DNA from: a virus
Virus record (IMG/VR): IMGVR_UViG_3300005077_000565
Span: 32,001 to 96,000 of that record
Length of the DNA stretch: 64,000 bases
Direction: 5' to 3' (one strand)
Below the pieces are notes generated by a model. The model searched no databases. It saw nothing but the letters and a program-made list of their open reading frames with translations, and was not told where the DNA came from. The translations under genes and the position numbers were made by a program. The number at the start of each line of letters is the position of its first letter. Position 1 is the first letter of the stretch. Positions 20,538-51,622 of this stretch are shown piece after piece.

Positions 20538-20885
20538 ATGGATGATCGTTTATCAAAAGCATTAGAGTTTTCAAATTATCGCATCACAATTGAAAACCAG
20601 AAAAAAGCCCTAAAGGCACGTGTCAGTACACTTCAGACATTCATGCATCAGGAAGGTGTCTGGACTGCTGATCTAGCAACAATTTCTTTTATACACACGC
20701 TAATCTCCAGTGGAGAAACTTCTAGTATTATTCAAGATACTCGCGGTAACCCCGTCCAAGTTGATGATCTGGCAGAATTCCTAAAATTATTAATCAGTAC
20801 CTATAACATGGCAATGAATGAGTTATCAGTGGAATTCAACAAATTGTCCAAGGCACGAAACATTAAAAAACTAATGGATTGGTAA
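20538..20885 (+). CDS. Hypothetical phage protein
   Basis: AAGG RBS; stop overlaps the next start; no recognisable catalytic motif. Confidence 0.6.
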   Translation: MDDRLSKALEFSNYRITIENQKKALKARVSTLQTFMHQEGVWTADLATISFIHTLISSGETSSIIQDTRGNPVQVDDLAEFLKLLISTYNMAMNELSVEFNKLSKARNIKKLMDW

Positions 20886-21775
20886 TGAATAACAACGGTG
20901 TGTGCTTCTTTGCATATAATAACGACCAGATCGACTATGTGAAACTAAGTTTGTTGCCGGCACTTCATGTTAAAAAATTCATGAAGAACAACAATACTTG
21001 TTTGATTACCAGCGATGGTGATTTTGCTTGGTTGGAAAAAAGTCAACCGTGTGAATTGATTGATCAGGCCTTTGATGAAGTCGTAATTGCCGACGTTGAA
21101 CATCGTCATAATATACGAACACATCACGACAGTCCCTGGACTAAATTTGATTCGCAGTTTAAAAATAGTAACAAGCATCTAATCAATAAATATTCACCTT
21201 TTGATCGAACATTGTTGTTAGACATTGACTATTTTGTGCGCAATGACAAACTGGACTATCTGTTTGATTCCGACGTAAATGTAGCTATGTATGATCGAGC
21301 GTGTGATCTTCGTCGTGATCCACCACATCTTTACGAACAATATTTAAATCCTGCCGGAATCCCCATGTGGTGGAGTACTCTAGTGTACTTTGATCGCAGT
21401 GACACCAGTGATATGTTCTTTGACCTCTGGGCACACGTTGCCGACAATTACGATTTTTATAAATTTTTATACGGGTTCCCTGGTAAAATGTTCAGGACAG
21501 ACTACTGTGTCAGCATTGTATCGCATATTATGAATGGCATGGTGCATGGTGATATTATACATCGTCCACTGGACAACTTAATGGAGTACATGGATCAGAA
21601 AGACGACATTGTTGAAATTAAATCAGCAGATGACTGGGTGTTCTTATCCAACGATCGCCGCGAAGCCTGGAATAACATTTTAGTACGAAACAAATCGTCA
21701 AATCTACACGTCATGAACAAACGAAGCATTGACCGTCATTATGATAAAATTTTAGAAAGTGTATATAATGTCTGA
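20885..21775 (+). CDS. Glycosyltransferase (GT-A fold, GT8-like)
   Basis: SPFDRTLLLDIDY contains the DxD motif; likely start is ATG 20885 rather than TTG 20879. Confidence 0.65.
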   Translation: MNNNGVCFFAYNNDQIDYVKLSLLPALHVKKFMKNNNTCLITSDGDFAWLEKSQPCELIDQAFDEVVIADVEHRHNIRTHHDSPWTKFDSQFKNSNKHLINKYSPFDRTLLLDIDYFVRNDKLDYLFDSDVNVAMYDRACDLRRDPPHLYEQYLNPAGIPMWWSTLVYFDRSDTSDMFFDLWAHVADNYDFYKFLYGFPGKMFRTDYCVSIVSHIMNGMVHGDIIHRPLDNLMEYMDQKDDIVEIKSADDWVFLSNDRREAWNNILVRNKSSNLHVMNKRSIDRHYDKILESVYNV

Positions 21776-22607
21776 AGGATACATTACACTGGCAATAACA
21801 CCGGAATCAATTCAGCGTGCAGTTGCATTGTGCGCCAGTGTCAAACTAATCGACAGCGCTCGCGAGTTTTGCTTGATCACTGATAAATTCACGTCAGTAC
21901 CAAAAAAATACGAATCCGTTTTTGACATGATCATCGAACTACCATTCGGTAACAGCGATCATACCGAAGATGAACACATCAATATCTGGCAGATGTTTTT
22001 GAGTAGCCCGTTTGACCGCACATTATTTTTAGATAATAAGGTTCTAGTTCTTAGTGATATTGAGCGCGCCTGGAGCGAGTGTGAAACTTACGATTTAATA
22101 TTCCCGCATGTCGTCAGAAATTTCCGTGGCGAACAACGTCCATTGAAATACAAATTCAATGTCCATCGAAAAAATAACATTCCTGAATTTTACACTGATG
22201 TGTTTTTCTTTGAAAAAACCGAGCGATCAGCCCAGTTTTTTAAGATGCTGGATCCGGTAATGCAGCAGCATCGTCGAGTATACTCGACTATAGTTACAGA
22301 ATCTTGCCCAGATTATTTTGACTGGAACTTATTGATTAACGTTGCGATCAGACTAGCTGGTGAAGAAACTAGAATTTTTGGTAATATTGATTATACACTA
22401 GTAAGTCTAGAAAATATTACATTGGATGATCACGATCTACCCAATGACTGGACTGATTATCTGAGTAACTGGTATAATAGTGGTAATTTAAAAATTAATA
22501 ACCATAGACTATCTGGAATAGTTTGTTATAATAGTGAAAATTTTATAGAAGAAGAAATTTTAGATGACCTCCACAGTAGGATTAACTTTAGTAAAATCGA
22601 CGTCTAA
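21768..22607 (+). CDS. Glycosyltransferase-like paralog (degenerate DxD)
   Basis: SPFDRTLFLDNK parallels the upstream gene; likely start ATG 21768. Confidence 0.55.
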   Translation: MSEGYITLAITPESIQRAVALCASVKLIDSAREFCLITDKFTSVPKKYESVFDMIIELPFGNSDHTEDEHINIWQMFLSSPFDRTLFLDNKVLVLSDIERAWSECETYDLIFPHVVRNFRGEQRPLKYKFNVHRKNNIPEFYTDVFFFEKTERSAQFFKMLDPVMQQHRRVYSTIVTESCPDYFDWNLLINVAIRLAGEETRIFGNIDYTLVSLENITLDDHDLPNDWTDYLSNWYNSGNLKINNHRLSGIVCYNSENFIEEEILDDLHSRINFSKIDV

Positions 22608-24351
22608 AGTTCGTGATTTTTTTGTATACTATAATGAATGGGATGGTTCAATTGTAACTGTGACCAGTTCCGAGTACGACAGTATTGGCCACCCATTTAT
22701 AATAACCGACAGTCCAGCGGCTGGTCTTATACTGCGCGGTGAAGCAAATGAGAATGATTATATTGTCACTTACAACGATACTAATTCTCTATGCCTGATT
22801 GAGCGTGGGAATGTAATCCGGCTACGCAGCAGTGAGAATAAACTTCATACTCTGACTAAAAAACATAGTCATGACTGGGATATACGTATAAAAGTATATA
22901 CTGGGAACAACAAAATGCTGGTAGAAATTAACAGCGAAAGTATCCGCAAACTCAGTAATATGACATTTAACAAAACTATCGAGATGAGTCCTAGTACTGA
23001 TCTAGGTCTTTATGTCATAAAGTATAATTCACCCGACTATTTTTTGGAAAAAATAAATGTTGATCCGGTTGAGTTGTTGACTGTGGGTAATGTGGTATAC
23101 GACATCAGTGATTTAAAAAAGCACATCAGTCTTCGCGATATTGGATTTTTAACCAGACGTATTTTTAAAAATTACTACTACGACATTGTACCCGACAGTC
23201 TGGATATTATCCAGCAAACACTGATTAAAAATAGAAGTTATGTGCACCGACATGCTGTTCACAATCTTGAACGTGCACATATCACAATGACACAGATTGC
23301 AGACCAGTTGACATTCACCACTAGTCTAAGCAAAACTGATTTAGAAGATCTGGGGTTGTATGAAGATGCCATCTGGTTATATGTTGTTGGAGACACTCCA
23401 GACGAGTACTACGGTAAAATACTGCTGGACATTAAAGAATTAAAAACTAAAAAAACTGTAACCATCACCAACGATGGTGATATCAGTCACGGCGTCTGGG
23501 GCAGTGATGCCGCACACAAAGCAGCCGCAGCATTAAGTGAAACCAGCAGATTTATCACTATTGATGCTGATAATATCGTGCACGATGATTTCTTCTCAGT
23601 GGAAGTAGACATGGATCGCATCGGTGAAAACGATGTGATTAGCTGGGCCGGTAAAAACGTTATTAACGGACTAGTCTACGGCAACGGCGGTATCAAATGC
23701 TGGCCAGTACATGTGGTCAACGGCATGCGCACACATGAAGCAGCACCGGCCAATGATAAGCGTGCCCAGGTTGACTTTTGTTGGAACATTAACTATGTGC
23801 AGATGAACAACATGTATTGCGACGTGCATAATAATGGCAGTCCCTATCAAGCGTACCGTGCTGGATTCCGTGAAGGATGTAAAATGAGTCTGGACGACGG
23901 TGATGTTGTAGACAAGTATGCGCTTAAAAAATTACATCGCAAAAATTATCAGCGCATGTTAGTGTGGATGTCGGTGGGTGCAGATGCCGCTAACGGACTC
24001 TGGGCCATATATGGTGCGAGACTTGGCTGTTATATGACTAACTTGGACAGAAATTCCTGGGACTGGCGCAACGTTCGAGATTTTAAGTGGCATACTGATT
24101 TCTGGAATTCCACTGTAGCACCACAGTTTGCTGATGAAAATGGTGTTTTGTGCCCGAGAACTGGCTATCGTTACAATCTAGAAAAATTACAAACAGAAAC
24201 TCTACGACTAGGTAAAATACTTCAGGATCAACTTGGACTGGAGATTGCTGACTTGGATGATAAAGCCAGCCGTTTCTTCAAAGAAACATATGTCAATCCA
24301 GCACGTGTAAGACCCATGGCACGAGAATCTGATGTAACCAACGAAATCTAA
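22564..24351 (+). CDS. Fusion of an unknown N-terminal domain and a glycosyltransferase-like domain
   Basis: C-terminal HGVWGSDAAHKAAA..FITIDAD..NGLVYGNGGIK..AYRAGFREGCKM is homologous to the ORF at 41534. Confidence 0.6.
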   Translation: MTSTVGLTLVKSTSKVRDFFVYYNEWDGSIVTVTSSEYDSIGHPFIITDSPAAGLILRGEANENDYIVTYNDTNSLCLIERGNVIRLRSSENKLHTLTKKHSHDWDIRIKVYTGNNKMLVEINSESIRKLSNMTFNKTIEMSPSTDLGLYVIKYNSPDYFLEKINVDPVELLTVGNVVYDISDLKKHISLRDIGFLTRRIFKNYYYDIVPDSLDIIQQTLIKNRSYVHRHAVHNLERAHITMTQIADQLTFTTSLSKTDLEDLGLYEDAIWLYVVGDTPDEYYGKILLDIKELKTKKTVTITNDGDISHGVWGSDAAHKAAAALSETSRFITIDADNIVHDDFFSVEVDMDRIGENDVISWAGKNVINGLVYGNGGIKCWPVHVVNGMRTHEAAPANDKRAQVDFCWNINYVQMNNMYCDVHNNGSPYQAYRAGFREGCKMSLDDGDVVDKYALKKLHRKNYQRMLVWMSVGADAANGLWAIYGARLGCYMTNLDRNSWDWRNVRDFKWHTDFWNSTVAPQFADENGVLCPRTGYRYNLEKLQTETLRLGKILQDQLGLEIADLDDKASRFFKETYVNPARVRPMARESDVTNEI

Positions 24352-24359: not shown

Positions 24360-25940
24360 ATGGAACTAGGAAATTTAAATTGGGACCGTAATCCCGACGA
24401 TGGTAAACAGCAGATTCGTATGAATGATTATAATGCGGGTCTGACTAAACAACTTCTAGATAGCACCGGGCCGGGTTTCTGCCTGGCCAAATGGAAACAG
24501 GTCACTGTACATCTTGGGACTGGTATGACACATAGTTGTCATCACCCCACTACACATAAGATTCCATTAGAAGAGTTAAAAAACAACGTAAGTGCACTGC
24601 ATAACACAGAATTCAAAAAGCAGCAACGAAAAACTATGTTGTCCGGGGGGCGCCCCGCAGAGTGTGATTATTGCTGGCGTGTGGAAGACAATGGTAATTT
24701 CAGTGATCGCCATTATAAGAGTATGGAATATTGGGCACTGCCAGAGCATGACAATATCGCCAAATTAACTGGTGATGAGAATGTATACCCTAGCTACCTA
24801 GAAGTGAGTTTTAGTAATGTCTGCAATTTTAAATGTACATATTGTGGTCCCGAATCCAGCAGCCAGTGGGTTGATGATTTAAAAACGCATGGTCCCATCA
24901 AGGTATTTGCTGAAACCCCGCATGAGACATGGATTCAGGGCTGGCAGAAGAATCTAGAATCGTTAAATTATAAAAATAACGAATTTAACCCCTACGTGGA
25001 TGCATTCTGGCGTTGGTGGCCAGAAGCGTACCCGCATCTTAAAGTATTCCGCATCACCGGCGGGGAACCACTGTTGAGTAAAGAAACCTTTAGGGTTATT
25101 GACTGGATTTCCGAAAATCCGAATCCCGATCTGGAATTTCACATCAATACTAACCTAGGAGTGCCGGAAAAATTATGGCAGCAGTTTCTAACCAAAATAA
25201 CTGCGATCAAGGACTCTGACAACGTTAATAACATTACGATATACACTAGTGTAGACGGCTGGGGCAAACGTGCCGAGTATGCAAGACCAGGCCTGGATTT
25301 TGAATTATTTAAGACTAGATATGAACAACTAGTGTCACTGGGAAATATTAGATGTGTGATCATGAGCACATATAATATTTTTAGTGTTACATCCTTCAAG
25401 CAACTCCTAGAGTGGCAACTGGCACTGCGTAAAAAATACAACGCCAACCCCAGTGTATATAAACTAGAAGATCTTGGATGGCGCACACGTCCTGACGTTG
25501 ACAACAATGAGTTGCGCTATAAAAATTCCAAACACAGCAGTGTCGTGGCCATTGATGTACCTTATTTACGTCACCCCAAAGTATTGGACGCTCACATCTC
25601 GTCTCATGATCTAGTCTACAACTATATGCTGCCTAGCTTGGACTTCATGTCGGACAATCAGAGTGAACCCAATTGGCGTTATCACATGGGATTTGAAGGC
25701 TATGAAATTGATAAACTTAGACGCATTGTCATGCATCGTATGTATTTTAACCAGCCAGTAAAAAACCCCACAGACATTGAGCGCGACGACATCAACCAAC
25801 TACGTGGGCAGTTCTATGATTATGTTAATATACTAGATCAGCGTAACGGAACAAATTTCTCTGAAACATTTCCAGAAATGGCCGAATTCTATCAAATGTG
25901 CAAAGAAGCCAAAGAAAAATGGTTATCCCTGCAAAAGTAA
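24360..25940 (+). CDS. Radical SAM protein with N-terminal twitch/SPASM-like Cys motifs
   Basis: CNFKCTYC, ITGGEP; N-terminal FCLAKW..SCHH..CDYCW. Confidence 0.88.
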   Translation: MELGNLNWDRNPDDGKQQIRMNDYNAGLTKQLLDSTGPGFCLAKWKQVTVHLGTGMTHSCHHPTTHKIPLEELKNNVSALHNTEFKKQQRKTMLSGGRPAECDYCWRVEDNGNFSDRHYKSMEYWALPEHDNIAKLTGDENVYPSYLEVSFSNVCNFKCTYCGPESSSQWVDDLKTHGPIKVFAETPHETWIQGWQKNLESLNYKNNEFNPYVDAFWRWWPEAYPHLKVFRITGGEPLLSKETFRVIDWISENPNPDLEFHINTNLGVPEKLWQQFLTKITAIKDSDNVNNITIYTSVDGWGKRAEYARPGLDFELFKTRYEQLVSLGNIRCVIMSTYNIFSVTSFKQLLEWQLALRKKYNANPSVYKLEDLGWRTRPDVDNNELRYKNSKHSSVVAIDVPYLRHPKVLDAHISSHDLVYNYMLPSLDFMSDNQSEPNWRYHMGFEGYEIDKLRRIVMHRMYFNQPVKNPTDIERDDINQLRGQFYDYVNILDQRNGTNFSETFPEMAEFYQMCKEAKEKWLSLQK

Positions 25941-25953
25941 TATATAATAGTAT

Positions 25954-27627
25954 ATGACTAAGAAAAAATTTGCTGATAACGTCTGGGAACGCAACGCTAA
26001 TGGCCAACTAAACATGTCTTTGGCTAATCGGCAACAAATACGTAATTTGTTGAATGAAACTGGGCCAGGATTCTGCCTAGCCAAGTGGTCACAGGTGACC
26101 ATGCATCTAGGCAACGGTCTAACACATAGTTGTCATCATCCCGGGGCACACAAAATACCACTGGAAGAACTCGCTGAAAATCCCGGTGCTCTACATAATA
26201 CAAAATATAAAAAATATCAGCGTAAATTAATGCTGTCAGGTCAACGCCCGTCGGAATGTGATTTTTGCTGGCGTGTGGAAGACAACAACGAATTCAGTGA
26301 CCGAGTTCTAAAAAGTCTCAGTGAATTCAGCAGCGACTACTATGATCAGATTGTTAATTACACCGGCGAAGAAGATCATTATCCAGCCTATGTTGAAGTA
26401 AGTTTTGGCAGGACCTGCAACTTTGCATGCTCGTACTGCGGTCCAGCATTTAGTAGTAAGTGGGAACAGGACATCAGCAAGTCAGGTCCCTACAAAGTAA
26501 TATATCAGGAGTATAACGCTGTACAGGAATCCGAAAAACACTACAACAACAACGAACATAATCCTTATATCGAAGCATTCTGGCGTTGGTTCCCCGATGC
26601 ATACAAACATATGCAGGTGTTTCGCATCACCGGCGGTGAACCACTGCTGATCAAGGACACATTCAGGGTCATGGATTTTCTATTGGCCAACCCCAACCCC
26701 AACCTCGAACTAGCAATAAATTCCAATGCCTGTCCGCCGGGAGATATCTGGGAGACATTTGTCAAGAAAGTAAAACGCCTGGTTGAAAATAACTGCGTTA
26801 AAAAATTTGATCTGTACACAAGTGCTGAAGCCACTGGTGAGCGTGCTGAGTATATTCGCGACGGCATGGACTGGAATATGTTTACAAAAAACATCGAGTA
26901 TTTTTTGACTGAAACTAGAAATACTCGGGTAGTGATAATGTCCACTTTTAACATACTCAGTGCCAGTACCTATCAGGAATTGCTGACCTGGATTTTGGAT
27001 CTCAAGCGCCGTTACAGCTATCATGGGCTGTTCAAGTGGTTTGAAGATCTGGGATTTTCACGTCATGAGCAGGGAGAGTTGCCCTACCAGGATAGGGTAG
27101 TTCCGGGATCAAATGCAGTTCATAGTCGCGTGGGCGTTGATATCCCCTACCTAAGACACCCTGCCTTTCTAGATGTTGCCATGTGTACACATGAGCAGAT
27201 AAACGACTACCTGATACCAGCGCTGGATTTTATGTATAGTAATCTCTCCAGTGCTGAATATTTTGGTACTAGTAGATTTGAAGATTACGAATGCATGAAA
27301 TTGAAACGCAATGTTTCGGATTGTATCAACAAATCAGTGCAGGTATATCCAGATGGCACACATCAAAATAAAACCATCGCATATGCTCGAGCACAATTTT
27401 ATAAATTTGTAGAAGAGTACGATCGACGCCGCAAAAAAGATTTCCTAAAAACATTTCCTGAATACACTGGATTTTATGACCTTTGCCGCATCGAGCATGA
27501 AAAATTATTTCCAGTACAGCATAGAACTATAATAGAAAAGGTAAAACAAGATGATCAAGTACAGAACACACTGGCAGTTGAACAAACAGTCGGGCCTGAT
27601 GCCAGCGACTCAGACACTAACGTTTAA
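25954..27627 (+). CDS. Radical SAM protein, tandem paralog of 24360
   Basis: CNFACSYC, ITGGEP; shares GPGFCLAKW.QVT.HLG.G.THSCHHP. Confidence 0.88.
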   Translation: MTKKKFADNVWERNANGQLNMSLANRQQIRNLLNETGPGFCLAKWSQVTMHLGNGLTHSCHHPGAHKIPLEELAENPGALHNTKYKKYQRKLMLSGQRPSECDFCWRVEDNNEFSDRVLKSLSEFSSDYYDQIVNYTGEEDHYPAYVEVSFGRTCNFACSYCGPAFSSKWEQDISKSGPYKVIYQEYNAVQESEKHYNNNEHNPYIEAFWRWFPDAYKHMQVFRITGGEPLLIKDTFRVMDFLLANPNPNLELAINSNACPPGDIWETFVKKVKRLVENNCVKKFDLYTSAEATGERAEYIRDGMDWNMFTKNIEYFLTETRNTRVVIMSTFNILSASTYQELLTWILDLKRRYSYHGLFKWFEDLGFSRHEQGELPYQDRVVPGSNAVHSRVGVDIPYLRHPAFLDVAMCTHEQINDYLIPALDFMYSNLSSAEYFGTSRFEDYECMKLKRNVSDCINKSVQVYPDGTHQNKTIAYARAQFYKFVEEYDRRRKKDFLKTFPEYTGFYDLCRIEHEKLFPVQHRTIIEKVKQDDQVQNTLAVEQTVGPDASDSDTNV

Positions 27628-28540: not shown

Positions 28541-28546
28541 CAGTCT

Positions 28547-30438: not shown

Positions 30439-30468
30439 TTAATCGTAAATAAAGGGATCTTGTTTTTT

Positions 30469-30502
30469 AAGCTGCTCGATTTTTTGTCTGAGCAGCTTTT
30501 TT
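30469..30502 (+). terminator. Rho-independent terminator
   Basis: AAGCTGCTC-12 nt-GAGCAGCTT stem followed by a T-run. Confidence 0.7.
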
Positions 30503-30566
30503 CTACGTCGTTCGCGCAGCGGCTGTAGTATCAGATCTATTATTTTTTTAAGTAAGTTTTTCATGA

Positions 30567-30580
30567 TATAAATATTTATA
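30567..30580 (+). promoter_or_regulatory. Late promoter TATAAATA within the palindrome TATAAATATTTATA
   Basis: Perfect box at 30567-30574, 5 nt before ATG 30580. Confidence 0.6.
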
Positions 30581-33064: not shown

Positions 33065-33078
33065 TTTTGGAGTTATTG

Positions 33079-37666: not shown

Positions 37667-37667
37667 T

Positions 37668-39664: not shown

Positions 39665-39674
39665 ATTACTAATT

Positions 39675-40326: not shown

Positions 40327-40338
40327 TGCCACAAAATG

Positions 40339-41532: not shown

Positions 41533-41533
41533 T

Positions 41534-43235: not shown

Positions 43236-43459
43236 AGGATATCACTGAATTAACGCTGCGAGAATTACAGACTGAGAGTGCACGTGCTCTGATAATTTTT
43301 GGTGCGACAAATAACAACATTAAAAAATTTAACGATGAAGCACGCCACGACAGCCAGAATTGGTATCGTGCCGTGATATTTGAATATTTAAAACAATACG
43401 GCGGTCTACCAAGCAACGTGGGCCCTGGCCGAGACGTAAAATTAGTCTGCGATGTATAA
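43232..43459 (+). CDS. Small hypothetical protein
   Basis: Fills the gap with overlaps at both ends (ATGA at the start). Confidence 0.6.
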   Translation: MKDITELTLRELQTESARALIIFGATNNNIKKFNDEARHDSQNWYRAVIFEYLKQYGGLPSNVGPGRDVKLVCDV

Positions 43460-44528: not shown

Positions 44529-45789
44529 TTAGACGATTTCGAAATTCTACTAGTTCGGGAAACGTAGTGGCAAAATCAGTGCCACGTAATCGATCATACT
44601 CAGCGACTCCACGATCAAATGCCTGACAGATTGCCGGTGTGTAAAAACTCTCATCGGCATTTTTAATTGACCTTACTGCACCAATCAGCGGATCTGTCCA
44701 GAATTTTGGTGCACCATCAGTGATAACGTTAGTGAGTTTACTAATGGCAATATCACGATATTCCTGGTCAGCTGAAAATAACGTAACTGCTACGGATCGA
44801 CTAGACCAGGGGACTATTTTTGCCGGGACCTTACTTCCTATACGGCAGTTGTCATGTAGCCATTGTGTCCATTCATCTATAGTAAGGGCGTTGAACACAT
44901 TTAAGCATGATTGTATGGCTACTTTTATGCCATTGCGTTTTATTTTATCAAATGTCTCCAGCCATTTATGATCGCGATAGCCATAACGTATATATGCGCC
45001 GCGATCGCCATGTCCATCATTGCTTAGAGTAATACTGCAACGATCGCCCCAGTGCACTAGATAGTTCTCAATGATATCAACTCCACGATAACTTGTAGTT
45101 ATACTACCATTAGTGTGAGACCATATTTTAATAGTTTTATGTAGTCCACGCTTGATCATTTCCTCTAACAATTCATGAAAGTCTTCACTCATGAAGGGTT
45201 CACCACCATTTAGGTGTATTAGACGTAGACTGTCGCTGTGGTCTAAAATGTATTTCAACATTTTTTTAGAATCATTCTGCCAGATTATTGAACTAGATTT
45301 TCTACTATCGGGATGCAGCGTATAATGTGCATGCTGATAGTTATTTGCGATAGTTGAACTCAGTTCTGGACTACACCCCAGGCAGGCAAAATTGCATTTG
45401 TTGGTCCAGAGTAGGTCTAACCAGACTGGTTTGAACTGATCAGTAGTATTGTATATAATGTCATTCAGATCATTAACGGCATTTTTATTATTAAACAGTC
45501 GGACGTCACTGATAGTATCGGATAGATTTTCCTGCCGCCAGCATGATCGGCATGCGTCAGGCCGTTCTCCTTTTAAGAATGCCGACCTTAATTTTCTGGA
45601 ATTTTCGCTATTGACTATATTTTCCAGTGAATCTGTGTTAAAATTACCCAGTGGGTATCTAGTTTTGCAACAGGGAGATACCAATCCTTCTGGTCCAATA
45701 TGAACACTGCTAAATGGTGCAGCACATAGATGGTCACCGAATTGAGTTGATATATTTTCAGGTAAACTAGACGGTGATTGTTCAGTCAT
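44509..45789 (-). CDS. Radical SAM protein with N-terminal twitch-like motifs (inverted orientation)
   Basis: CNFACLGC, LNGGEP; LCAAPF..PCC..CRSCW. Confidence 0.88.
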   Translation of the reverse strand: MTEQSPSSLPENISTQFGDHLCAAPFSSVHIGPEGLVSPCCKTRYPLGNFNTDSLENIVNSENSRKLRSAFLKGERPDACRSCWRQENLSDTISDVRLFNNKNAVNDLNDIIYNTTDQFKPVWLDLLWTNKCNFACLGCSPELSSTIANNYQHAHYTLHPDSRKSSSIIWQNDSKKMLKYILDHSDSLRLIHLNGGEPFMSEDFHELLEEMIKRGLHKTIKIWSHTNGSITTSYRGVDIIENYLVHWGDRCSITLSNDGHGDRGAYIRYGYRDHKWLETFDKIKRNGIKVAIQSCLNVFNALTIDEWTQWLHDNCRIGSKVPAKIVPWSSRSVAVTLFSADQEYRDIAISKLTNVITDGAPKFWTDPLIGAVRSIKNADESFYTPAICQAFDRGVAEYDRLRGTDFATTFPELVEFRNRLIKKTVL

Positions 45790-45802
45790 AAATATATTTA
45801 TA
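45788..45802. promoter_or_regulatory. Palindromic pair of late boxes between divergent genes
   Basis: ATAAATA on + (45788-45794) and TATAAATA on - (45802-45795). Confidence 0.55.
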
Positions 45803-45815: not shown

Positions 45816-46940
45816 ATGAATCTAACTGACGTCAATAAGATAGAATTAGAACTTACCTCTAGATGTAATGCTGCATGCCCAGGCTGTGCCCGCACATTAA
45901 ATCCCGGAAAGTTCCCCATCGCAGACCTAACCATCGCTGATATAAAACGTTTATTTCCTGTTGAATACATAAAAGACAAAAAATTTAAACTCTGCGGAGT
46001 TCTAGGAGACCCGGTGTTCAATGATGATTGTCTGGAAATAACAGAATACATCGTAAGAAACGGTGGATACTGCCAGATTAGTACCAACGCCGGTATCCAA
46101 ACCGCCGGCTGGTGGCGTAAACTGGGTGCGCTGTCAGCTGAAACTGGTTTAGTTGATGTTGCGTTCTGTATTGATGGCCATGCTGAAACCAATCATATAT
46201 ATCGTGTCAATACCTACTTCCCTACTATATTAAGAAATCTAGAATCGTATTATCAGGGCGGCGCCGGCCAGGCCCTGGGGACCTGGGTTTACATTGTATT
46301 TGACCATAACGAACACGAAGTCGATGCTGCACGCGAAACTGCTCAGCGGCTTAATTTGAAATTCGCACTGCGTACAGGAATGCGTAATAGCATGTCTAAT
46401 TGGGTGGCCGAAGTCAAAACAAAAAAATCTGATCATGTTGTTCGAGAACAACGAACGATAACCACCACTGGTGAAAAAGAACACAGCAAAAAACAACAAG
46501 TACAACAAATCGAATCAGTGGTGACACAGTATCAGCAGTCTGTAGTAAACAGTACACCAGTTTCATCAGAAGTGCGCCAGCTGGTTGCAGAAACTGTCAG
46601 TACTATCACATGTAAGTTAGTGCACGAAGGTGAAATTTTCATTGCCAGTAATTTAACCGTCTGGCCCTGTTGTTTCCTCTGGGACAGCTATTTCAAAAAT
46701 AAAGACAGTATTGTAGACAAGTTATCGGATTTTGACTCTGACTGGAACAGTGTGGCCACTAAAAGTATCGCAGACGTCATTGGGCATCGTTGGTTCAGTA
46801 ATGAACTCGGCGAAAGCTGGAATTTTGACCATCCACGACATTTAACACGATGTGTTAAAACTTGTGCACACAACAAAGCATATCACAACGAAGTAAAGAT
46901 AATAGATCAACATGGAAAAACAACAGAAATATCCCAGTAA
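45816..46940 (+). CDS. Radical SAM protein, paralog of 43452
   Basis: CNAACPGC, CGVLGDP; C-terminal WPCCF..CVKTC. Confidence 0.88.
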   Translation: MNLTDVNKIELELTSRCNAACPGCARTLNPGKFPIADLTIADIKRLFPVEYIKDKKFKLCGVLGDPVFNDDCLEITEYIVRNGGYCQISTNAGIQTAGWWRKLGALSAETGLVDVAFCIDGHAETNHIYRVNTYFPTILRNLESYYQGGAGQALGTWVYIVFDHNEHEVDAARETAQRLNLKFALRTGMRNSMSNWVAEVKTKKSDHVVREQRTITTTGEKEHSKKQQVQQIESVVTQYQQSVVNSTPVSSEVRQLVAETVSTITCKLVHEGEIFIASNLTVWPCCFLWDSYFKNKDSIVDKLSDFDSDWNSVATKSIADVIGHRWFSNELGESWNFDHPRHLTRCVKTCAHNKAYHNEVKIIDQHGKTTEISQ

Positions 46941-48324
46941 GACATTTTGTATTTTACCCTGGGTACACTTGAGTACGCGGCCTGATGGCCAGATGCGTGT
47001 GTGTTGTACTGCCAATGCCAGTGCAGTAGGACCCACCAACGATAAATTGAACGGTGGTAACATCGGCGTCCTAAAAGACGAAGAAGGTCGTCCAAATAAT
47101 TTAAACGTGTCAGATTTCCTGTCCAGCTGGAATAGTTCATATATGAAGAATGTACGGCGTCAGATGCTCAATGGAGAGGAACCACCTAGTTGTACCAAAT
47201 GCTACAAGGAAGAACGTGCCGGCCACAAGAGTAAGCGAGAATGGGAAACCAAATACTGGAGTGAACGTGTGGATTTAGATCAACTCGTCGCCGATACTGC
47301 CGAAGATGGTAGCATACCTCCCAAACTTAGTTATATTGATCTTCGATTTGGTACCAAGTGTCAGCTGGCCTGTATAATGTGTAGTCCTCATGACAGCAGT
47401 GGCTGGATCAAAGAATGGAAAGCTATTCATCCCACCATTGAAAATAAAAATGTGCGCGAAGTCTGGCAGTGGGACAACAAGGGCAGTGTCAACGGCAGCA
47501 GTTATAACTGGCATAAAAATAATCCGGTGTTCTGGGAACAATTTTATGAACAGATACCTCATATGAAACAGGTTTATTTTGCCGGCGGTGAAAGTTTAAT
47601 CATTGAAGAGCACTACGAAATACTTGAAGAAATTATTCGACAGGGTCGTGCCAACGACATGGAAATTCGCTACAACAGCAATGGCGTTGAATGGCGTGAT
47701 GATCTTTTCGATCTCTGGAAAGAATTTAAAATTGTTAGATTTCACTACAGTGTCGATGATATTGGAGCACGTAATGAATACATACGCTATCCCAGTAAGT
47801 GGGCACGTACAGAAGAAGTATTCCGCATATTAGATGAACAGACCAGTGATAACGTAGAAGTAACAGTGGCCTGCGCAGTTAATGCATTAAATGTCTATTA
47901 TCTGCCGGATTTTCTAAAGTGGAAACTGACACAAAATTTTAAAAAGATCAACATGTGGCCACTGAGCGCCGGCGGCCTAAATTATCACTTTGTCTATTGG
48001 CCGCCCTATTTAAATGTTAAATCATTGCCACAATGGTTCAAAGATGAATGTGAGCGCAAATATGAAGAATTTATACCATGGTGGCGTGAACACTGGCAGC
48101 TTGGTGTTCCCGCGCATCTACAGGGCACAGTACCGCAGGACAAGTGGGAATCCGCTGAATATGGTATTAAAAGACTACGCGGCATAATAAGCTTCATGAA
48201 GTCCGAGGACTGGAGTGTACGGCTTCCAGAAATGCAGGAATATTTGGAAAAGATTGATGCACATCGCGGCACTAGTTTTTATGATACATTTGTTGACATG
48301 AAGGATATTTTTAAAAATGTTTGA
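46912..48324 (+). CDS. Radical SAM protein with N-terminal twitch-like motifs
   Basis: CQLACIMC, FAGGE; FCILPW..VCC..CTKCY. Confidence 0.88.
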   Translation: MEKQQKYPSKTFCILPWVHLSTRPDGQMRVCCTANASAVGPTNDKLNGGNIGVLKDEEGRPNNLNVSDFLSSWNSSYMKNVRRQMLNGEEPPSCTKCYKEERAGHKSKREWETKYWSERVDLDQLVADTAEDGSIPPKLSYIDLRFGTKCQLACIMCSPHDSSGWIKEWKAIHPTIENKNVREVWQWDNKGSVNGSSYNWHKNNPVFWEQFYEQIPHMKQVYFAGGESLIIEEHYEILEEIIRQGRANDMEIRYNSNGVEWRDDLFDLWKEFKIVRFHYSVDDIGARNEYIRYPSKWARTEEVFRILDEQTSDNVEVTVACAVNALNVYYLPDFLKWKLTQNFKKINMWPLSAGGLNYHFVYWPPYLNVKSLPQWFKDECERKYEEFIPWWREHWQLGVPAHLQGTVPQDKWESAEYGIKRLRGIISFMKSEDWSVRLPEMQEYLEKIDAHRGTSFYDTFVDMKDIFKNV

Positions 48325-49111
48325 TACATCAAATAAACTATACGACAATATAATAATAGAAAATAAAAATTTACTAAAACTTAACGTTGACGGCCTGGCT
48401 TTTGTCATTGGTAAAGACTGGCGCCGCATCGGTGTTAATTTATCTGGAAGTGCCGACAGTGCTATAGTAACAGCAATCTTGTGCAAATTGATACAGGAGA
48501 ATAATTTACAAATAAAAATATCAGCAATAAGTTTTATTCGTCGCTGGGATACACGACCCTGGCAGGCCTATATTGCCGAGCAGGTGTTTCAGGAATTAAA
48601 AAGAATGTACCCGGAAATTATTGAAGATCAACACTGGCACTACTTGCCACCAGAACTTGAAAGTGGTGCAATTGGTGAAATAATCACTGGTCGTGGATAT
48701 GACGCAATTGCTGTTGCTAGTTTTAACAGGTATATATCAAAACAATTAGACATGGATGCGGTCGTAAATGCCACCAGCATGGCGCCGACGGGCATAGAAA
48801 TAAATAAATCCAGTGAAAATTTCCGCAATAAAACAGCAACACAGGGAACCAGTGATGATTTAATTTACTGTCTAGACGGAATCTGGTACATGTATCCCCT
48901 AAGGTTTGTGACTAAAAACTGGGTAATTCAGCGATATTTCAATGCCGGTTTGCGTGTGTTATTCAATAAGACACGTAGCTGCAAAGCAGACGTAAATGAT
49001 TCAATTATTAATCCCTTTGTACCATCATATGATGATTACAAACCCGGTCAATTCGTCCCAGTCTGTGGTAAGTGTTGGTGGTGTCTAGCAGTGAACTCGG
49101 GGCAGCAGTAA
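48317..49111 (+). CDS. QueC-like PP-loop ATPase
   Basis: LSGSADS (variant of SGGxDS), TRSC and CGKCWWC Zn motif. Confidence 0.55.
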   Translation: MFDTSNKLYDNIIIENKNLLKLNVDGLAFVIGKDWRRIGVNLSGSADSAIVTAILCKLIQENNLQIKISAISFIRRWDTRPWQAYIAEQVFQELKRMYPEIIEDQHWHYLPPELESGAIGEIITGRGYDAIAVASFNRYISKQLDMDAVVNATSMAPTGIEINKSSENFRNKTATQGTSDDLIYCLDGIWYMYPLRFVTKNWVIQRYFNAGLRVLFNKTRSCKADVNDSIINPFVPSYDDYKPGQFVPVCGKCWWCLAVNSGQQ

Positions 49112-51177
49112 TGTCAGAAACCTTTTGTCCAATACCCTGGAACTTTCAGGCAATTAAATCCAATGGGGACCTGCGTGTATGCTGTCAGGCTAATGTCACT
49201 AAAAATCAGGGAGTACTGCGCAAGGATGATGGCACAGCATTCAATGCTGGTGTTGATTCACTGGGTGATTCTAGAAACAACGACATGCTACGTGCGATGC
49301 GTCTTAACATGCTTAACGGAGTCTGGAGTGAAGAATGTGGTCGCTGCAAGTCCGAGGAACAGGCCGGGTTAGTGAGTCGCCGAACATATGAAAACCAGCA
49401 GTGGCAGATGAGCATTGATGAAGTCCGTGCTAAAACCGCCAATGATGGTTCTATCGCCGATGGAGATTTTCCAGTTGTTTACTACGATCTTAGGTTTGGT
49501 AATTTTTGTAATCTTAAGTGTAGAATGTGTGGGCCCACCGACAGTAACTCCTGGTATGAAGACTGGATACAGTTAACTGGTGATAGTAAGTTTAAAGATT
49601 CTGGCAAGATTATTGAAATTAAAGATGCGACCACCAGTAGTTATAACTGGTATGAATATGAACCATTCTGGCAGCAGCTAGAGAACAACATGCATAATAT
49701 TCAGCATGTCTATCTGGCCGGTGGTGAACCACTTCTGATTGATCGGCACTACGATTTTCTAGAAAAATGTGTGACTTCGGGAAATGCTGATCATATTGTT
49801 CTAGAATACAACACTAACATGAGTACGATACCCACACGTGTAACAAATTTGTGGACTAATTTTAAACAGGTTAGAATCGGTGCCAGCATCGACGGAATAG
49901 GCTCAGTCTTCGAATACCAGCGTCACCCGGCTAAATGGGATAAAACTCTGGCAAACTTATACAAGGTTGATGCACTACCTGACAATGTCACTGGTTGGCT
50001 AGCATTCACTGTGACCGCGTATAACGTCAACCACATGATAGATTTCATGAAATGGAAACTCAGTGAAAGTGGCTTCACTAAGCTAAACAGCACTCGACGA
50101 AAACCCATCATTACGCATCATGTTGCACACCACCCACATCACTTGAATATACGAGTGCTTCCGGATGAATATAAAAAACAGATAACCAATAAATTTTCTG
50201 ATTTTATAAACTGGGTTAAACTGCAGGGCTATCCTGATCATGTAGTTAAACACGCCACTGAAATCAGCAACGGTGTGACTAATTACATGAACAGTCAGAG
50301 CTATTATGAATCTGATTGGCCGGAATTTTTAAAATATACTCGTGCACTGGACCGCATCCGTCAGGAAGACATCAGATACGTGGAACCCATGTTGGCACAG
50401 TATTTTGAAAATACCACAGACTCAGTCGCCCAAGAAAAACCTGCCCCGGTGATCGGTGCCACTGCGTCCTTTGATACAGTGGACCTGTTAACTGGAAATG
50501 TATTCCAGGTGACCTGGGATCTAGGACGCAGATGTAACTACGACTGTAGTTATTGCCCAACGCATCGTCATGATAACTTTAGTCCACATGCCACGCTGTA
50601 TGAACTTAAGAAAAATGCAGATTTTACACTTCGTTATATAGATATTTACATGCGCTATAGAAGTTATAAGCATGCTAGTATAAACTTTACCGGAGGCGAG
50701 CCCACGGTTAATCCTAATTTCATCGAGTTTATTGAATATTTGAAATCAAAATATCAGGAAAAATTTTCTGATAGATGGCGTTGTGTTTTCACTGTTACCA
50801 GCAACGGTGCAATGAGTAAAAAGATTGCCAAAGCTGTAATGAAACACTGTGATCATATTACAATAAGCTATCATACCGAGGCCGCCGACCTTATTAAACA
50901 GCAGGTTCGAGATCGCATGGTTCAGTTTTCTAAGGAAGGTCCCAAACATGGCTGTACACTTTCAATTAACGTCATGTTCCACGCCAAATATTTTGACGAA
51001 TGTCAGGAACTATGTAGGTTTTTGGATTCTAAAAATATCAAATATGTACCGCGTGTCATTGGCGAAGACCCTAGCAGTAAACCATCGTTCGCACATCAGT
51101 ATAACGATCAACAACTGGCCTGGTTCAAAGAATACTGGGATAAAAATACGCAGGAGTTGACTAATAATGCAAAATAA
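49111..51177 (+). CDS. Double radical SAM fusion protein
   Basis: Two cores: CNLKCRMC/AGGEP and CNYDCSYC/TGGEP; likely start ATG 49111. Confidence 0.85.
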   Translation: MSETFCPIPWNFQAIKSNGDLRVCCQANVTKNQGVLRKDDGTAFNAGVDSLGDSRNNDMLRAMRLNMLNGVWSEECGRCKSEEQAGLVSRRTYENQQWQMSIDEVRAKTANDGSIADGDFPVVYYDLRFGNFCNLKCRMCGPTDSNSWYEDWIQLTGDSKFKDSGKIIEIKDATTSSYNWYEYEPFWQQLENNMHNIQHVYLAGGEPLLIDRHYDFLEKCVTSGNADHIVLEYNTNMSTIPTRVTNLWTNFKQVRIGASIDGIGSVFEYQRHPAKWDKTLANLYKVDALPDNVTGWLAFTVTAYNVNHMIDFMKWKLSESGFTKLNSTRRKPIITHHVAHHPHHLNIRVLPDEYKKQITNKFSDFINWVKLQGYPDHVVKHATEISNGVTNYMNSQSYYESDWPEFLKYTRALDRIRQEDIRYVEPMLAQYFENTTDSVAQEKPAPVIGATASFDTVDLLTGNVFQVTWDLGRRCNYDCSYCPTHRHDNFSPHATLYELKKNADFTLRYIDIYMRYRSYKHASINFTGGEPTVNPNFIEFIEYLKSKYQEKFSDRWRCVFTVTSNGAMSKKIAKAVMKHCDHITISYHTEAADLIKQQVRDRMVQFSKEGPKHGCTLSINVMFHAKYFDECQELCRFLDSKNIKYVPRVIGEDPSSKPSFAHQYNDQQLAWFKEYWDKNTQELTNNAK

Positions 51178-51622
51178 AATCATACCAATTGTTGAAGACA
51201 GCGACGAACTTGGGCTTAAGTTTGGTCGCCCCTGCTGTGGTGGTCGAACCATGTGTCTGCACAGTGAAGGTGAAACTAAAAAATCTAAATTTGTGGATTT
51301 CCGTGAATTCGAAGGCTGGTACTGTAGTGTGAACTGGTTCTTCATGCATATAGAGCAGCAGACTAATCGAGTGTTCCATCATCAAACCTGCAAAGCACAG
51401 TTTGGGGGTGGTATTGGCCCGATTGGAGGCCTTGACGATGCTGAACAGATTTTACAGGACCTCGAGCGCACTCTGCAACAACAGCAGATGCCCACTATAA
51501 TATGTCCTAAAAAAACCTGCGGTTGTGGACTGTGTGCGCCCAAGAGTATTGATCAGGACAAATTTAATGCAGTACTGTCAAGTCATATTGACATGTCAGT
51601 GTTTAATTTATCTAACCGTTGA
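51167..51622 (+). CDS. Cys-rich SPASM-like Fe-S protein
   Basis: PCCGGRTMC, WYCSVNW, HQTC, CPKKTCGCGLCAPK; GGAG RBS. Confidence 0.6.
   Translation: MQNKIIPIVEDSDELGLKFGRPCCGGRTMCLHSEGETKKSKFVDFREFEGWYCSVNWFFMHIEQQTNRVFHHQTCKAQFGGGIGPIGGLDDAEQILQDLERTLQQQQMPTIICPKKTCGCGLCAPKSIDQDKFNAVLSSHIDMSVFNLSNR

Follow-up and report, generated by a model that had tools for sequence, protein, structure and literature searches.

An uncultured giant phage carries, directly behind its tail-fibre genes, a tightly packed 31-kb late operon of genes for sugar-transferring, methyl-, sulfo-, carbamoyl- and acyl-handling enzymes together with ten iron-sulfur “radical SAM” enzymes of a never-studied family, and most likely uses it to build and edit an unusual sugar decoration. 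The block occupies positions 20538–51622 of the window, that is, of the whole 64,000-nt stretch of viral DNA analyzed here (positions 32,001 to 96,000 of IMG/VR record IMGVR_UViG_3300005077_000565). It contains 33 genes, 32 of them on the + strand (as are all genes described below except the one at 44509), and 28 of 32 junctions overlap or are no longer than 15 nt. The contig is that of a jumbo myophage of the Rak2/Atu_ph07/Phosso lineage, with phage genes of one lineage on both sides of the block. A preliminary description of this DNA had listed ten radical SAM genes with 11 domains, four glycosyltransferase (GT)-like, five SGNH-like and two sulfotransferase genes, CysC, a NodU-type carbamoyltransferase, a methyltransferase and a QueC-like protein, nearly all co-oriented and headed by a late box; this observation is confirmed, with the qualifications on individual assignments given below.

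The block is not one unit. A core, consisting of a GT8-like pair, two GT-A domains, a methyltransferase, three radical SAM types and a PP-loop ATPase, recurs in 80 of 80 related viral loci (individual members in fewer, see below) and occurs in a compact form in the culturable Ralstonia phage RsoM2USA and in chromosomes of Bdellovibrionota, where it is accompanied by genuine GT2, SDR and PP-loop genes. In contrast, a 17-kb accessory insert (24360–41129), which holds the twin radical SAM genes, both sulfotransferase-like genes, the five SGNH-like genes, the carbamoyltransferase and an APS-kinase-like gene, is shared by only three other contigs, in which the sulfo/carbamoyl/SGNH/radical SAM set is co-conserved. 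The block also holds a homing endonuclease gene, a 64-aa DUF2061 gene and a conserved 75-aa gene that the preliminary description missed.

The island is headed by a T4-type late-promoter-like box, TATAAATA, at 20491–20498 (+), 40 nt before the first ATG. An internal box precedes the SGNH-like genes (30567–30574, +), and the only minus-strand gene has its own TATAAATA at 45795–45802. All five sites of this octamer in the window fall in the 1.3% of the DNA that is non-coding, just upstream of starts. The first gene (20538–20885) encodes a 115-aa helical protein of unknown function without any family hit; it is conserved at the same position in nine viral loci and as RsoM2USA_354.

Four proteins are GT-like. 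Those encoded at 20879–21775 and 21759–22607 are distant paralogues, and their joint profile, which includes orthologues, hits glycogenin-1 (GT8) with an E value of 3.9e-6; Mannosyl_trans3 is hit in 5 of 20 members, and RsoM2USA_353 is 30% identical to the former. The gene at 22564–24351 encodes a 595-aa fusion of a unique N-terminal half and a GT-A domain (residues ~309–593), which is a paralogue of the protein encoded at 41456 (blastp, E 6e-11); only this C-terminal half is conserved, in 72 loci, and it is 43% identical to RsoM2USA_350. The core GT-A enzyme itself (41456–42244) contains an invariant DxD and is present in 72 of 80 loci; its structural model (pLDDT 88) matches SunS, GalNAc-T, RmlT, WrtF and A64R of PBCV-1 in Foldseek searches, and VIA-align gives Z scores of 11.4–9.5. 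It is followed by the core class I SAM methyltransferase with an N-terminal helical domain (42195–43235), present in 71 of 80 loci, whose best fold matches are small-molecule methyltransferases such as PsoF, BchU, DnrK and SgvM.

Ten genes, at 24360, 25954, 33679, 36479, 37668, 43452, 44509, 45816, 46912 and 49072 (double), contain 11 CxxxCxxC cores. Six domains score 243–424 bits against the NCBIfam model NF033640 (cut-off 170), with an N-terminal Cys cluster followed by CxxxCxxC. The N-terminal-twitch enzymes comprise the one encoded at 24360–25940 (305 bits), whose orthologue RsoM2USA_349 is 36% identical (E 1e-91), its twin at 25954–27627 (45% identity), those at 33679–34995 (260 bits) and, on the minus strand, 44509–45789 (243 bits), and the flagship core enzyme at 46912–48324 (424 bits), which is present in 80 of 80 loci at 70–81% identity and in Bdellovibrionota at 53–60%. 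The pair encoded at 36479–38873 (63% identity to each other) has an N-terminal SPASM/twitch-like domain but stays below the NF033640 cut-off; 40% identical orthologues lie in L129–L131 (L numbers designate related loci in the comparison). Type B, with the core first and a C-terminal Cys-rich domain, is represented at 43452–44528, present in 77 of 80 loci at a median identity of 63% and in Bdellovibrionota at 43–45%, and by a paralogue at 45816–46940. The gene at 49072–51177 encodes a fusion of an N-terminal-twitch enzyme (406 bits) with the type C core (CNYDCSYC); this C-terminal half is a separate gene in relatives and matches a bacterial 380-aa family. The 151-aa Cys-rich protein encoded next (51167–51622; 33 of 80 loci, 54% identity) is the detached auxiliary-cluster domain of type C, as its Cys spacing matches the C-terminus of the fused bacterial form. 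Between the flagship gene and the fusion lies a PP-loop ATPase gene (48317–49111; 33 of 80 loci); the protein has an SGSADS motif and a C-terminal CxxCxxC but no QueC Pfam match and is QueC-like in shape only.

Among the accessory proteins the O-carbamoyltransferase of the NodU/TobZ/NovN family (34992–36479) is strongly supported, with Pfam hits to Carbam_trans_N (1e-38) and Carbam_trans_C (7e-52), and to NovN (E 6.5e-57), GdmN and TobZ among solved structures; orthologues of 49–52% identity sit in the same position in L026, L093 and L129–L131. Assignment of the sulfotransferase-like proteins (28547–29302 and 38870–39640) rests on motifs only (a PRSGST loop, KNHIxH and RRD...S), which read PRSGST, KNHINH and IRRD...S in the latter and with which ARGGTT, KDHIGH and IRYD..S of the former align; Pfam is below its cut-off (Sulfotransfer_3, E 0.005, for the former), and the only PDB profile hit is the CurM sulfotransferase at E 0.017. 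The CysC-like, compact APS-kinase-like P-loop kinase (39675–40097) passes the Pfam APS_kinase cut-off (32.8 versus 21.1 bits) and hits PDB 2yvu at E 4.5e-5, but it has 140 aa, of which only the first ~80 align; a 58% identical orthologue lies next to the nucleotidyltransferase gene in L093. The five SGNH-like proteins show the block I and block V motifs, although their profile gives only weak GDSL hits: two paralogues (30580–31293 and 31277–31936; 42% identity) with G-x-S-x-x-x-G and D-x-x-H blocks, one protein (31906–32484) with a canonical GDS block and a 40% identical homologue in L130, and two further paralogues (32474–33064 and 33067–33669; 39% identity), the second of which lacks the Ser. 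Proteins of 329 aa (27551–28540) and 379 aa (29299–30438) gave no hit in Pfam, PHROGs or NCBIfam and are of unknown function.

At the downstream end of the insert lie the gene for the 64-aa hydrophobic DUF2061 protein (40098–40292; PF09834, E 5.6e-23) and that for a NUMOD3 homing endonuclease (40365–41129). The latter is an intruder and not part of the pathway; it is absent between the same two genes in L093, and a 13-codon remnant of the displaced N-terminus lies at 40286–40327. The following gene (41116–41532) encodes a 138-aa HxGH nucleotidyltransferase (NMNAT/TagD-like) of unknown substrate, 55% identical to its counterpart in L093.

New here is the overlooked 75-aa helical-hairpin protein encoded at 43232–43459. 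It is the best-conserved core gene, found in 61 of 80 loci with 77% mean column identity, and belongs to no family; in metagenome proteins it is fused to type B, N-terminal-twitch and type C radical SAM enzymes, to GT-A and to a UDP-sugar dehydrogenase, and so looks like a shared docking or adaptor module. It is absent from RsoM2USA and from the bacterial clusters.

The preliminary description interpreted the block as a virion-surface or host-surface glycosylation and hyper-decoration system, and this interpretation is partly supported. The gene content does point to glycosylation and decoration. It had been stated in advance that the reading would fall if the genes were not co-conserved or if the contig were a phage–host chimera; the genes are co-conserved and the contig is not a chimera. 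However, the block is a widespread core plus a rare insert rather than one 31-kb system, no result shows whether the target is the virion, the host surface or something else, and the system, put forward as the best candidate for an undescribed one, is not unnoticed: NCBIfam already defines the main radical SAM family (NF033640), and two papers mention such radical SAM cassettes next to tail-fibre and GT genes in marine T4-like phages (PMC7029224, PMC5332604), though without a function.

The reading we favor, with moderate confidence only, is a late-expressed, cytoplasmic multi-enzyme system that assembles a short glycan and then edits it heavily. In this view, the two GT8-like and two GT-A enzymes would build an oligosaccharide on an acceptor, whose hydroxyl or amino groups would then be decorated by the methyltransferase, the O-carbamoyltransferase, the two PAPS-type sulfotransferases (fed by the phage’s own APS-kinase-like enzyme) and the SGNH-like acyl esterases/transferases; the PP-loop ATPase would activate a carboxylate, for example for amidation. 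The eleven radical SAM domains, falling into three ancient types (N-terminal-twitch, C-terminal Cys-rich, and a MoaA/viperin-like core with a detached cluster domain), would abstract hydrogen from unactivated sugar carbons to oxidize, epimerize, deoxygenate or branch individual residues, each paralogue at its own position, while the 75-aa protein would hold the enzymes on one substrate. The acceptor is most likely a phage structural protein such as a tail fibre, as the cassette sits at the end of the tail-fibre operon under late boxes and has no flippase, polymerase or lipid-carrier transferase. What the analysis itself establishes are the gene identities, at the levels given above, their co-conservation, the placement of the late boxes and the absence of a transmembrane segment from every protein of 80 aa or more (only the DUF2061 protein is hydrophobic); every chemical step, the order of steps and the acceptor are inferred, neither acceptor nor radical SAM chemistry having been tested.

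In favor of this reading are the GT folds and families, the carbamoyltransferase’s solved relatives, which include enzymes carbamoylating sugar hydroxyls (NovN, TobZ), the methyltransferase fold, the sulfotransferase motifs and the APS_kinase hit, the core synteny of GT-A, methyltransferase and radical SAM genes, its recurrence in RsoM2USA and Bdellovibrionota, the co-conservation of the accessory set in three more contigs, the fusions of the 75-aa protein, the absence of transmembrane segments from proteins of 80 aa or more and the intergenic late boxes just upstream of starts; further, the N-terminal-twitch paralogues are only 20–35% identical to each other, which fits many different substrates or positions rather than one. 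On the other hand, no radical SAM enzyme of NF033640 has a known substrate and no sugar-acting activity is shown for any of the three types, SPASM/twitch enzymes being best known for modifying peptides. The top fold matches of the GT-A enzyme include peptide glycosyltransferases (SunS, GalNAc-T), so the radical SAM enzymes could act on the protein rather than on the sugar. No nucleotide-sugar synthesis gene was identified inside the island, the sulfotransferase and SGNH assignments rest on motifs and sub-threshold hits, and no glycosylated virion protein is reported for RsoM2USA, where PMC8504454 did not look for one. The core also exists in Bdellovibrionota, which have no virion, so the ancestral acceptor is cellular.

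An alternative, which appears unlikely but survives best, is remodelling of the host envelope: the same enzymes would act at the cytoplasmic face on the host’s own lipid-linked O-antigen, capsule or LPS core units, and the altered sugar coat displayed by the infected cell or its debris would exclude other phages or stop progeny from sticking to debris. This was proposed for GT-rich host-recognition clusters of pelagimyophages by Zaragoza-Solas et al. (PMC7029224); it agrees with the core’s presence in bacterial chromosomes, where the acceptor must be cellular, and GT8 and GT2 families are typical of LPS synthesis. The phage would need PAPS in the cytoplasm either way. However, there is no GtrA/B/C-type component, Wzx/Wzy, O-acetyltransferase or other membrane protein, none of the island’s proteins of 80 aa or more having a transmembrane segment, and late-type promoter boxes and coupling to tail-fibre genes fit virion assembly better than early surface conversion.

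Slightly less likely still is a RiPP-like maturation, in which the radical SAM enzymes would crosslink, epimerize or methylate a ribosomal substrate such as a tail fibre or a small protein like that encoded at 20538, the GTs would add sugars to it, and the 75-aa protein would serve as recognition element. SPASM/twitch enzymes are mostly peptide maturases, to many of which NCBIfam gives weak secondary hits; the 75-aa domain occurs free or fused to several tailoring enzymes, the pattern known for RiPP recognition elements; and GT-A fold matches include SunS and polypeptide GalNAc-transferases. Yet no precursor-like gene with a variable core was found, the 75-aa protein is a helical hairpin and not a PqqD-like winged helix and is missing from RsoM2USA and the bacterial clusters, and none of the carbamoyltransferase’s solved relatives (NovN, GdmN, TobZ) is known to act on a protein. 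Moreover, one RiPP enzyme usually handles many sites, whereas here 8–16 deeply diverged paralogues coexist.

Doubtful, too, is a diffusible glycosylated, sulfated and carbamoylated metabolite (aminoglycoside-, nucleoside- or cofactor-like), used against competitors or to reprogram the host. The closest solved relatives of the carbamoyltransferase are antibiotic-tailoring enzymes, the methyltransferase resembles small-molecule enzymes, and the combination of radical SAM, GT and methyltransferase recalls mycofactocin and aminoglycoside clusters; but no scaffold-forming enzyme (cyclase, PKS/NRPS, precursor peptide), exporter or self-resistance gene was seen, and the fixed position behind tail-fibre genes in unrelated phages (PMC7029224) is hard to explain for a metabolite. 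DNA or nucleotide hypermodification, in which the enzymes would decorate bases of the phage genome to evade restriction, is very unlikely: although such pathways use GTs, carbamoyl groups, radical SAM enzymes and QueC-type ATPases, and a QueD-like gene exists elsewhere in the contig, no TGT/DpdA was found in this contig or in four relatives (one of them 100% complete), the protein encoded at 48317 does not match QueC, the island lies in the late structural module and not with replication genes, the GTs are GT8/GT-A, and the core also occurs in bacteria.

NF033640 (N_Twi_rSAM, twitch domain-containing radical SAM protein) is a catalogue entry with no known substrate; here the family occurs in jumbo phages as arrays of 8–16 diverged paralogues, tied to GT-A, a methyltransferase and two other radical SAM types. 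The host recognition cluster of pelagimyophages (PMC7029224) and the T4-like environmental genome of PMC5332604 share a variable island next to tail-fibre genes with glycosyltransferases and swappable radical SAM cassettes, one marine T4-like genome carrying 12 radical SAM genes; those papers only list the genes, the present phage is of a different lineage (given above), and the cultured pelagiphages in the phage collection searched gave no orthologue of the protein encoded at 46912. In virus-encoded virion glycosylation (chlorovirus PBCV-1 A64R; mycobacteriophage capsid and tail glycosylation) soluble viral GT-A enzymes and methyltransferases likewise act in the cytoplasm, and A64R is among the fold matches (Foldseek E 4e-4; Z 8.1); those systems have no radical SAM enzymes, sulfation or carbamoylation, and virion glycosylation is not shown here. 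The Nod-factor tailoring set of rhizobia (NodU carbamoyl, NodH sulfo with NodPQ for PAPS supply, NodS methyl, NodL acetyl) places the same kinds of decoration on an oligosaccharide, and a NodU-family carbamoyltransferase and an APS-kinase-like gene are present here; but there is no NodC-type chitin synthase, NodB or NodA, the sulfotransferases match at motif level only, and Nod clusters have no radical SAM enzymes. The mycofactocin pathway combines a radical SAM/SPASM enzyme (MftC), a GT2-type transferase (MftF), a methyltransferase (MftM) and a small partner protein (MftB) that can be free or fused; however, matches to the MftC model are weak (25–28 bits against a cut-off of 265), no MftA-like peptide, MftD or MftE is present, and the 75-aa protein is not an RRE fold. 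Finally, ORF354–347 of RsoM2USA (MG752970), all annotated as hypothetical and in a phage whose virion proteomics covered only ten abundant bands, form a syntenic minimal cassette directly behind a tail-fibre-like gene, in the order small protein, two GT8-like proteins, GT-A, N-terminal-twitch radical SAM, GT-A and methyltransferase; it has one radical SAM gene instead of ten and no sulfo, carbamoyl or SGNH genes.

The stretch examined comprises bases 32001-96000 of a 168-kb linear IMG/VR virus record rated 47% complete by CheckV; genes are designated below by the window position at which they begin. Upstream of the island lie a baseplate hub/lysozyme, a gp25-like wedge, a gp6-like wedge (PHROG E 6e-295), a 3501-aa giant protein and a tail-fibre-like gene; an HNH endonuclease gene (2528-3079) is inserted between the baseplate lysozyme and wedge genes. 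The giant ORF (6949-17454), which was not analysed further, follows the gp6-like protein at the position of the 2541-aa virion protein ORF361 of Ralstonia phage RsoM2USA, and is a candidate acceptor for any virion modification. The wedge protein is 35-39% identical to those of jumbo myophages XaC1, SCTP-2, Atu_ph07 and the Rak2-like coliphages, and a T4-type portal lies further upstream. Downstream, a DNA polymerase and a ClpA-like ATPase match Sinorhizobium phage Phosso and Atu_ph07 at 44-49%, and a TctC-type tricarboxylate-binding protein with a hydrophobic N-terminus (51691-52653; Pfam E 3.7e-13) directly follows the island. GC content is even across the window. A phage-host chimera had been named beforehand as an outcome that would overturn the finding; the flanks show that the island is embedded in one phage genome, and this possibility is rejected. 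Megablast of the window against 50,697 phage records gave no match.

The gene counts of the preliminary description, which had seen a co-oriented tailoring cluster rich in radical SAM genes behind the tail-fibre genes, are correct. Ten genes carry eleven CxxxCxxC motifs, and PF04055 matches all of them, several below the gathering score. They fall into three types. Six domains are true members of NCBIfam NF033640 (N_Twi_rSAM), exceeding the curated cut-off of 170 bits over the full model: 24360 scores 305, 25954 293, 33679 260, 44509 243, 46912 424 and the N-terminal half of 49072 406 bits. In this family the auxiliary Fe-S (twitch/SPASM) domain precedes the radical SAM core; Pfam SPASM lies at residues 12-112, before Radical_SAM, and C13, C32, the cysteines of the radical SAM core and other columns are invariant. 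The genes 36479 and 37668 have the same layout but score only 81 and 64 bits. In 43452 and 45816 the order is the usual one, with a C-terminal Cys-rich domain (type B). The C-terminal half of 49072 is a third type (type C) with CNYDCSYC, whose auxiliary domain is the separate 151-aa Cys-rich gene 51167; the 380-aa bacterial form has both parts fused with the same Cys spacing. Four more radical SAM matches lie in the same contig beyond the right edge of the window (positions 96825-97130, 107754-107939, 109659-110057 and 110873-111415 of the record), so the total for this phage is at least 14 genes.

Among the other enzymes, 41456 is confidently predicted (pLDDT 88) to adopt a GT-A fold; Foldseek retrieves SunS, GalNAc-transferases, RmlT, WrtF and the PBCV-1 capsid glycosyltransferase, VIA-align gives Z 11.4-9.5 (11.4 to B4GALNT1, then SunS and SpsA), and the DxD motif (D83 and D85) is invariant. 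Its listed start overlaps the preceding nucleotidyltransferase by 77 nt (41456-41532), but conservation among orthologues begins near residue 27-29, so that the true start is probably the internal Met at about 41534. The C-terminal half of 22564 is a paralogue of 41456, while 20879 and 21759, together with orthologues, give a profile that hits glycogenin (GT8) at E 4e-6, with D115 invariant and D117 in at least 90% of sequences. By fold, 42195 is a class I methyltransferase; profiles of the GT-A and of the methyltransferase had no sequence hit in the PDB, and only fold searches placed them. The assignment of 34992 as an O-carbamoyltransferase of the NodU/CmcH/TobZ group is firm, both Carbam_trans_N (133.9 bits) and Carbam_trans_C (175.8 bits) being above cut-off and NovN being hit at E 6.5e-57. 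PHROGs gave nothing for the non-radical-SAM genes of the island, and NCBIfam gave nothing useful for ten of them.

Other assignments are weaker. The two sulfotransferase-like genes, 28547 and 38870, rest on the 5'-phosphosulfate loop (PxxGxT), catalytic His and 3'-phosphate Arg/Ser motifs, which are present and aligned in four homologues; however, Pfam gives 17.5 and 18.5 bits against a cut-off of 27 and the only PDB profile hit is the CurM sulfotransferase at E 0.017, which leaves membership in the PAPS-dependent family undecided. A search with 38870 alone found nothing, and the alignment found only three loci. The CysC-like 39675 passes the Pfam APS_kinase cut-off (32.8 against 21.1 bits) and its best PDB hit is an APS kinase (E 4.5e-5), but only residues 3-82 of 140 align and the general AAA_33 model scores equally, so that the evidence does not settle whether it is an APS kinase. 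Similarly, of the four blocks of SGNH/GDSL hydrolases, I (GDS), II, III and V (DxxH), blocks I and V are visible in the joint alignment of the five SGNH-like genes; 9 of 14 weak PDB profile hits are GDSL proteins, the best at E 0.028, yet there is no Pfam hit, and the data allow no decision on the family. The protein first described as QueC-like, 48317, has a PP-loop but does not match QueC.

The packing is as tight as first described: 32 of 33 genes are on the + strand, and 28 of 32 junctions overlap or are within 15 nt. The late-promoter-like box TATAAATA is not more frequent than expected by chance (6 matches at 5 sites, 5.3 expected), but all five sites lie in the 1.3% of the window that is non-coding, each just upstream of a start; three serve the island, at 20491, 30567 and, on the minus strand, 45795. 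A search of sequencing runs listed no RNA data set, only three freshwater DNA runs with about 5% of the words, and reads were therefore not mapped.

Conservation across related phages had been proposed as a test of the cluster, with loss of co-conservation as grounds for discarding it; the genes are co-conserved, but as a core plus an insert. The gene 46912 has over 3000 homologues in metagenomes at E <= 1e-5, the best 73-86% identical, and relatives on 218 viral contigs. In the 80 loci fetched, the recurring order is the GT-A domain of 22564, 41456, 42195, 43452, a variable set of radical SAMs, 46912, more variable radical SAMs, 48317, the type C radical SAM and then 51167. Some relatives, such as locus L079, run 20538, 20879, 21759, 22564, 41456 without a break, so window 24360-41129 is an accessory insert. 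The insert is itself co-conserved: three other contigs (L129-L131) carry, directly before a 70-72% identical GT-A, a 24360-like and a 36479-like radical SAM, one or two sulfotransferase-like genes and the carbamoyltransferase; L130 also carries SGNH-like genes. In the relative L093 the kinase and the HxGH nucleotidyltransferase 41116 are adjacent, whereas in the window (40286-41532) they have been split by a NUMOD3 homing endonuclease (40365-41129); a 13-codon ORF just upstream (MFDWKKPTTQMLG*, 40286-40327) repeats the N-terminus of the transferase in diverged DNA. A 64-aa DUF2061 protein (40098-40292; E 5.6e-23), which starts at the stop codon of the APS-kinase-like gene and is not present in L093, is the only hydrophobic protein of the island, and its role is unknown. 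Five related jumbo-phage records, one of them complete at 381,886 bp, hold 5-16 NF033640 matches each, four of the five 13-16.

A 75-aa ORF (43232-43459) between the methyltransferase and 43452, overlapping both neighbours, was missed in the preliminary description. It is present in 61 of 80 loci and is the most conserved protein of the core, at 77% mean column identity; it has no family, and the Atlas model is a helical hairpin. A scan of 1.84 billion representative proteins finds only 62 clusters, mostly free-standing, but in different metagenome proteins the domain is also fused to the type B radical SAM, an N-twitch radical SAM, the type C radical SAM, the GT-A or a UDP-glucose/GDP-mannose dehydrogenase. 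A small domain either free or fused to several different enzymes of one pathway is best read as a shared docking or substrate-presenting module, although this is an inference. A complex prediction with the methyltransferase (score 0.01, controls not run) speaks neither for nor against binding; the fusions point to radical SAM and glycosyltransferase partners instead. Profile searches did not find the protein in RsoM2USA or in the Bdellovibrionota loci, so it is not essential to the chemistry.

Among the 50,697 phage records, only RsoM2USA, which is culturable, has orthologues of 24360 and 20879. Its ORF354-347, all annotated as hypothetical, reproduce the order of the window after a tail-fibre-like gene: 20538-like, two GT8-like, an unassigned ORF, GT-A, one N-twitch radical SAM, GT-A and methyltransferase. 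The paper on that phage does not mention these genes and analysed only ten abundant virion bands. It was considered that the hits in bacterial MAGs might all be mis-binned phage contigs. For most this is true: the MAGs behind L092, L093 and L090 (labelled Rickettsiales MED657, Gammaproteobacteria MED685 and Crocinitomicaceae) contain contigs of this jumbo-phage clade, with baseplate wedge genes 38-44% identical to those of the window, and their taxonomic labels say nothing about the host of the island. For Bdellovibrionota it is false; 57 of 401 genomes match the 46912 profile at E <= 1e-30, and about 25 have true orthologues at 53-60% identity on contigs of up to 2.9 Mb, one locus being situated among Tad-pilus, tyrosine-catabolism and UvrD genes. 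In L094, a Bdellovibrionales MAG (1-6500 and 9159-13588), a four-gene core (GT-A plus three radical SAMs) lies next to a Tad/Flp pilus operon (CpaF-like ATPase, secretin, RcpC), but as the flanks differ in other Bdellovibrionota genomes this may be a coincidence. The bacterial clusters hold the same core (N-twitch, type C and type B radical SAMs; GT-A in 10 of 16 loci; a methyltransferase in 12 of 16) plus genuine GT2, SDR and PP-loop genes. By contrast, only 2 of 400 other Pseudomonadota genomes, and none of 14 control genomes above the cut-off, have the family.

Every recognizable non-radical-SAM enzyme handles sugars or decorates hydroxyl and amino groups; the solved relatives of the carbamoyltransferase include enzymes that carbamoylate sugar hydroxyls, the bacterial versions add textbook GT2 and SDR genes, and the 75-aa protein is fused to a UDP-sugar dehydrogenase. 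We therefore read the island as a glycan assembly and tailoring system, in which each diverged radical SAM paralogue edits a particular sugar position by hydrogen abstraction. The gene assignments, at the strengths given, and their co-conservation are what the analysis shows, while the pathway, the chemistry and the acceptor are inferred from them. Four points favour a phage structural protein as acceptor: no protein of 80 aa or more has a transmembrane segment; there is no flippase, polymerase or lipid-carrier transferase; the cassette always follows tail-fibre genes; and it carries late-type boxes. This last step is the weakest, because the bacterial core must serve a cellular acceptor, and glycans on virion proteins were not measured here. 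The initial interpretation, a surface glycosylation and decoration system, is supported only in part.

Remodelling of the host envelope cannot be excluded, but the hallmarks of Gtr/Oac-type O-antigen conversion, that is, a membrane flippase, a bactoprenol transferase or an integral-membrane acyl or glucosyl transferase, are lacking: the maximum 19-residue Kyte-Doolittle hydropathy is <1.4 in all 31 island proteins of 80 aa or more. Direct radical modification of a protein or peptide likewise cannot be excluded. A RiPP maturase system would have an adjacent precursor peptide and a PqqD-like recognition element (RRE); no precursor-like ORF was found and the 75-aa protein is a helical hairpin without a family, yet it shows the free-or-fused pattern of an RRE, so that the comparison with RiPP maturase systems points neither way. 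A diffusible metabolite is a third possibility. DNA hypermodification is unlikely. A 7-deazaguanine pathway would call for a QueC match together with FolE, QueD, QueE and a DpdA/TGT transglycosylase, but PF06508 (QueC) finds nothing in the contig, no TGT/DpdA was found in five related genomes (one complete), the QueD-like (PTPS) gene at 164111-164524 of the record, which also occurs in two relatives, lies 80 kb from the island, and the island lies in the late structural module.

If the glycan reading is right, some of the most abundant uncultured giant phages spend 5-10% of their genome on a glycan-editing machine built around radical SAM enzymes with no known reaction. This would add to carbohydrate enzymology the radical oxidation, epimerization or branching of sugars within a glycoconjugate, and to phage biology a sulfated and carbamoylated virion glycan that varies by cassette exchange; the minimal version in RsoM2USA makes the question directly testable. 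An unlikely but possible extension is that a large, abundant clade of uncultured jumbo phages, and Bdellovibrionota, use arrays of the three uncharacterized radical SAM types as a combinatorial toolkit for radical editing of carbohydrate residues, a chemistry barely known for glycans, with the 75-aa protein holding the enzymes together on one acceptor. In phages the product would then be a hyper-decorated (methylated, sulfated, carbamoylated, acylated) glycan on the tail fibres, and gain and loss of radical SAM and decoration cassettes would diversify the virion surface in the way O-antigen loci diversify bacteria. Even if the acceptor proves to be something else, the conserved core of GT-A, methyltransferase, three radical SAM types and a docking protein, shared between phages and predatory bacteria, defines a pathway that is not in any textbook.

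As for what is already known, the main radical SAM family is catalogued (NF033640) but uncharacterized, and two papers mention radical SAM cassettes beside tail-fibre and glycosyltransferase genes, or a dozen radical SAM genes, in marine T4-like phages (PMC7029224, PMC5332604) without giving a function; a literature search for phage-encoded sulfotransferase plus carbamoyltransferase found nothing relevant. The window adds the sulfo/carbamoyl/SGNH accessory module and its co-conservation, the split type C radical SAM and the 75-aa fused-or-free protein. Virus-encoded glycan tailoring is itself known, and the island appears to be a further form of it whose chemistry may be new.
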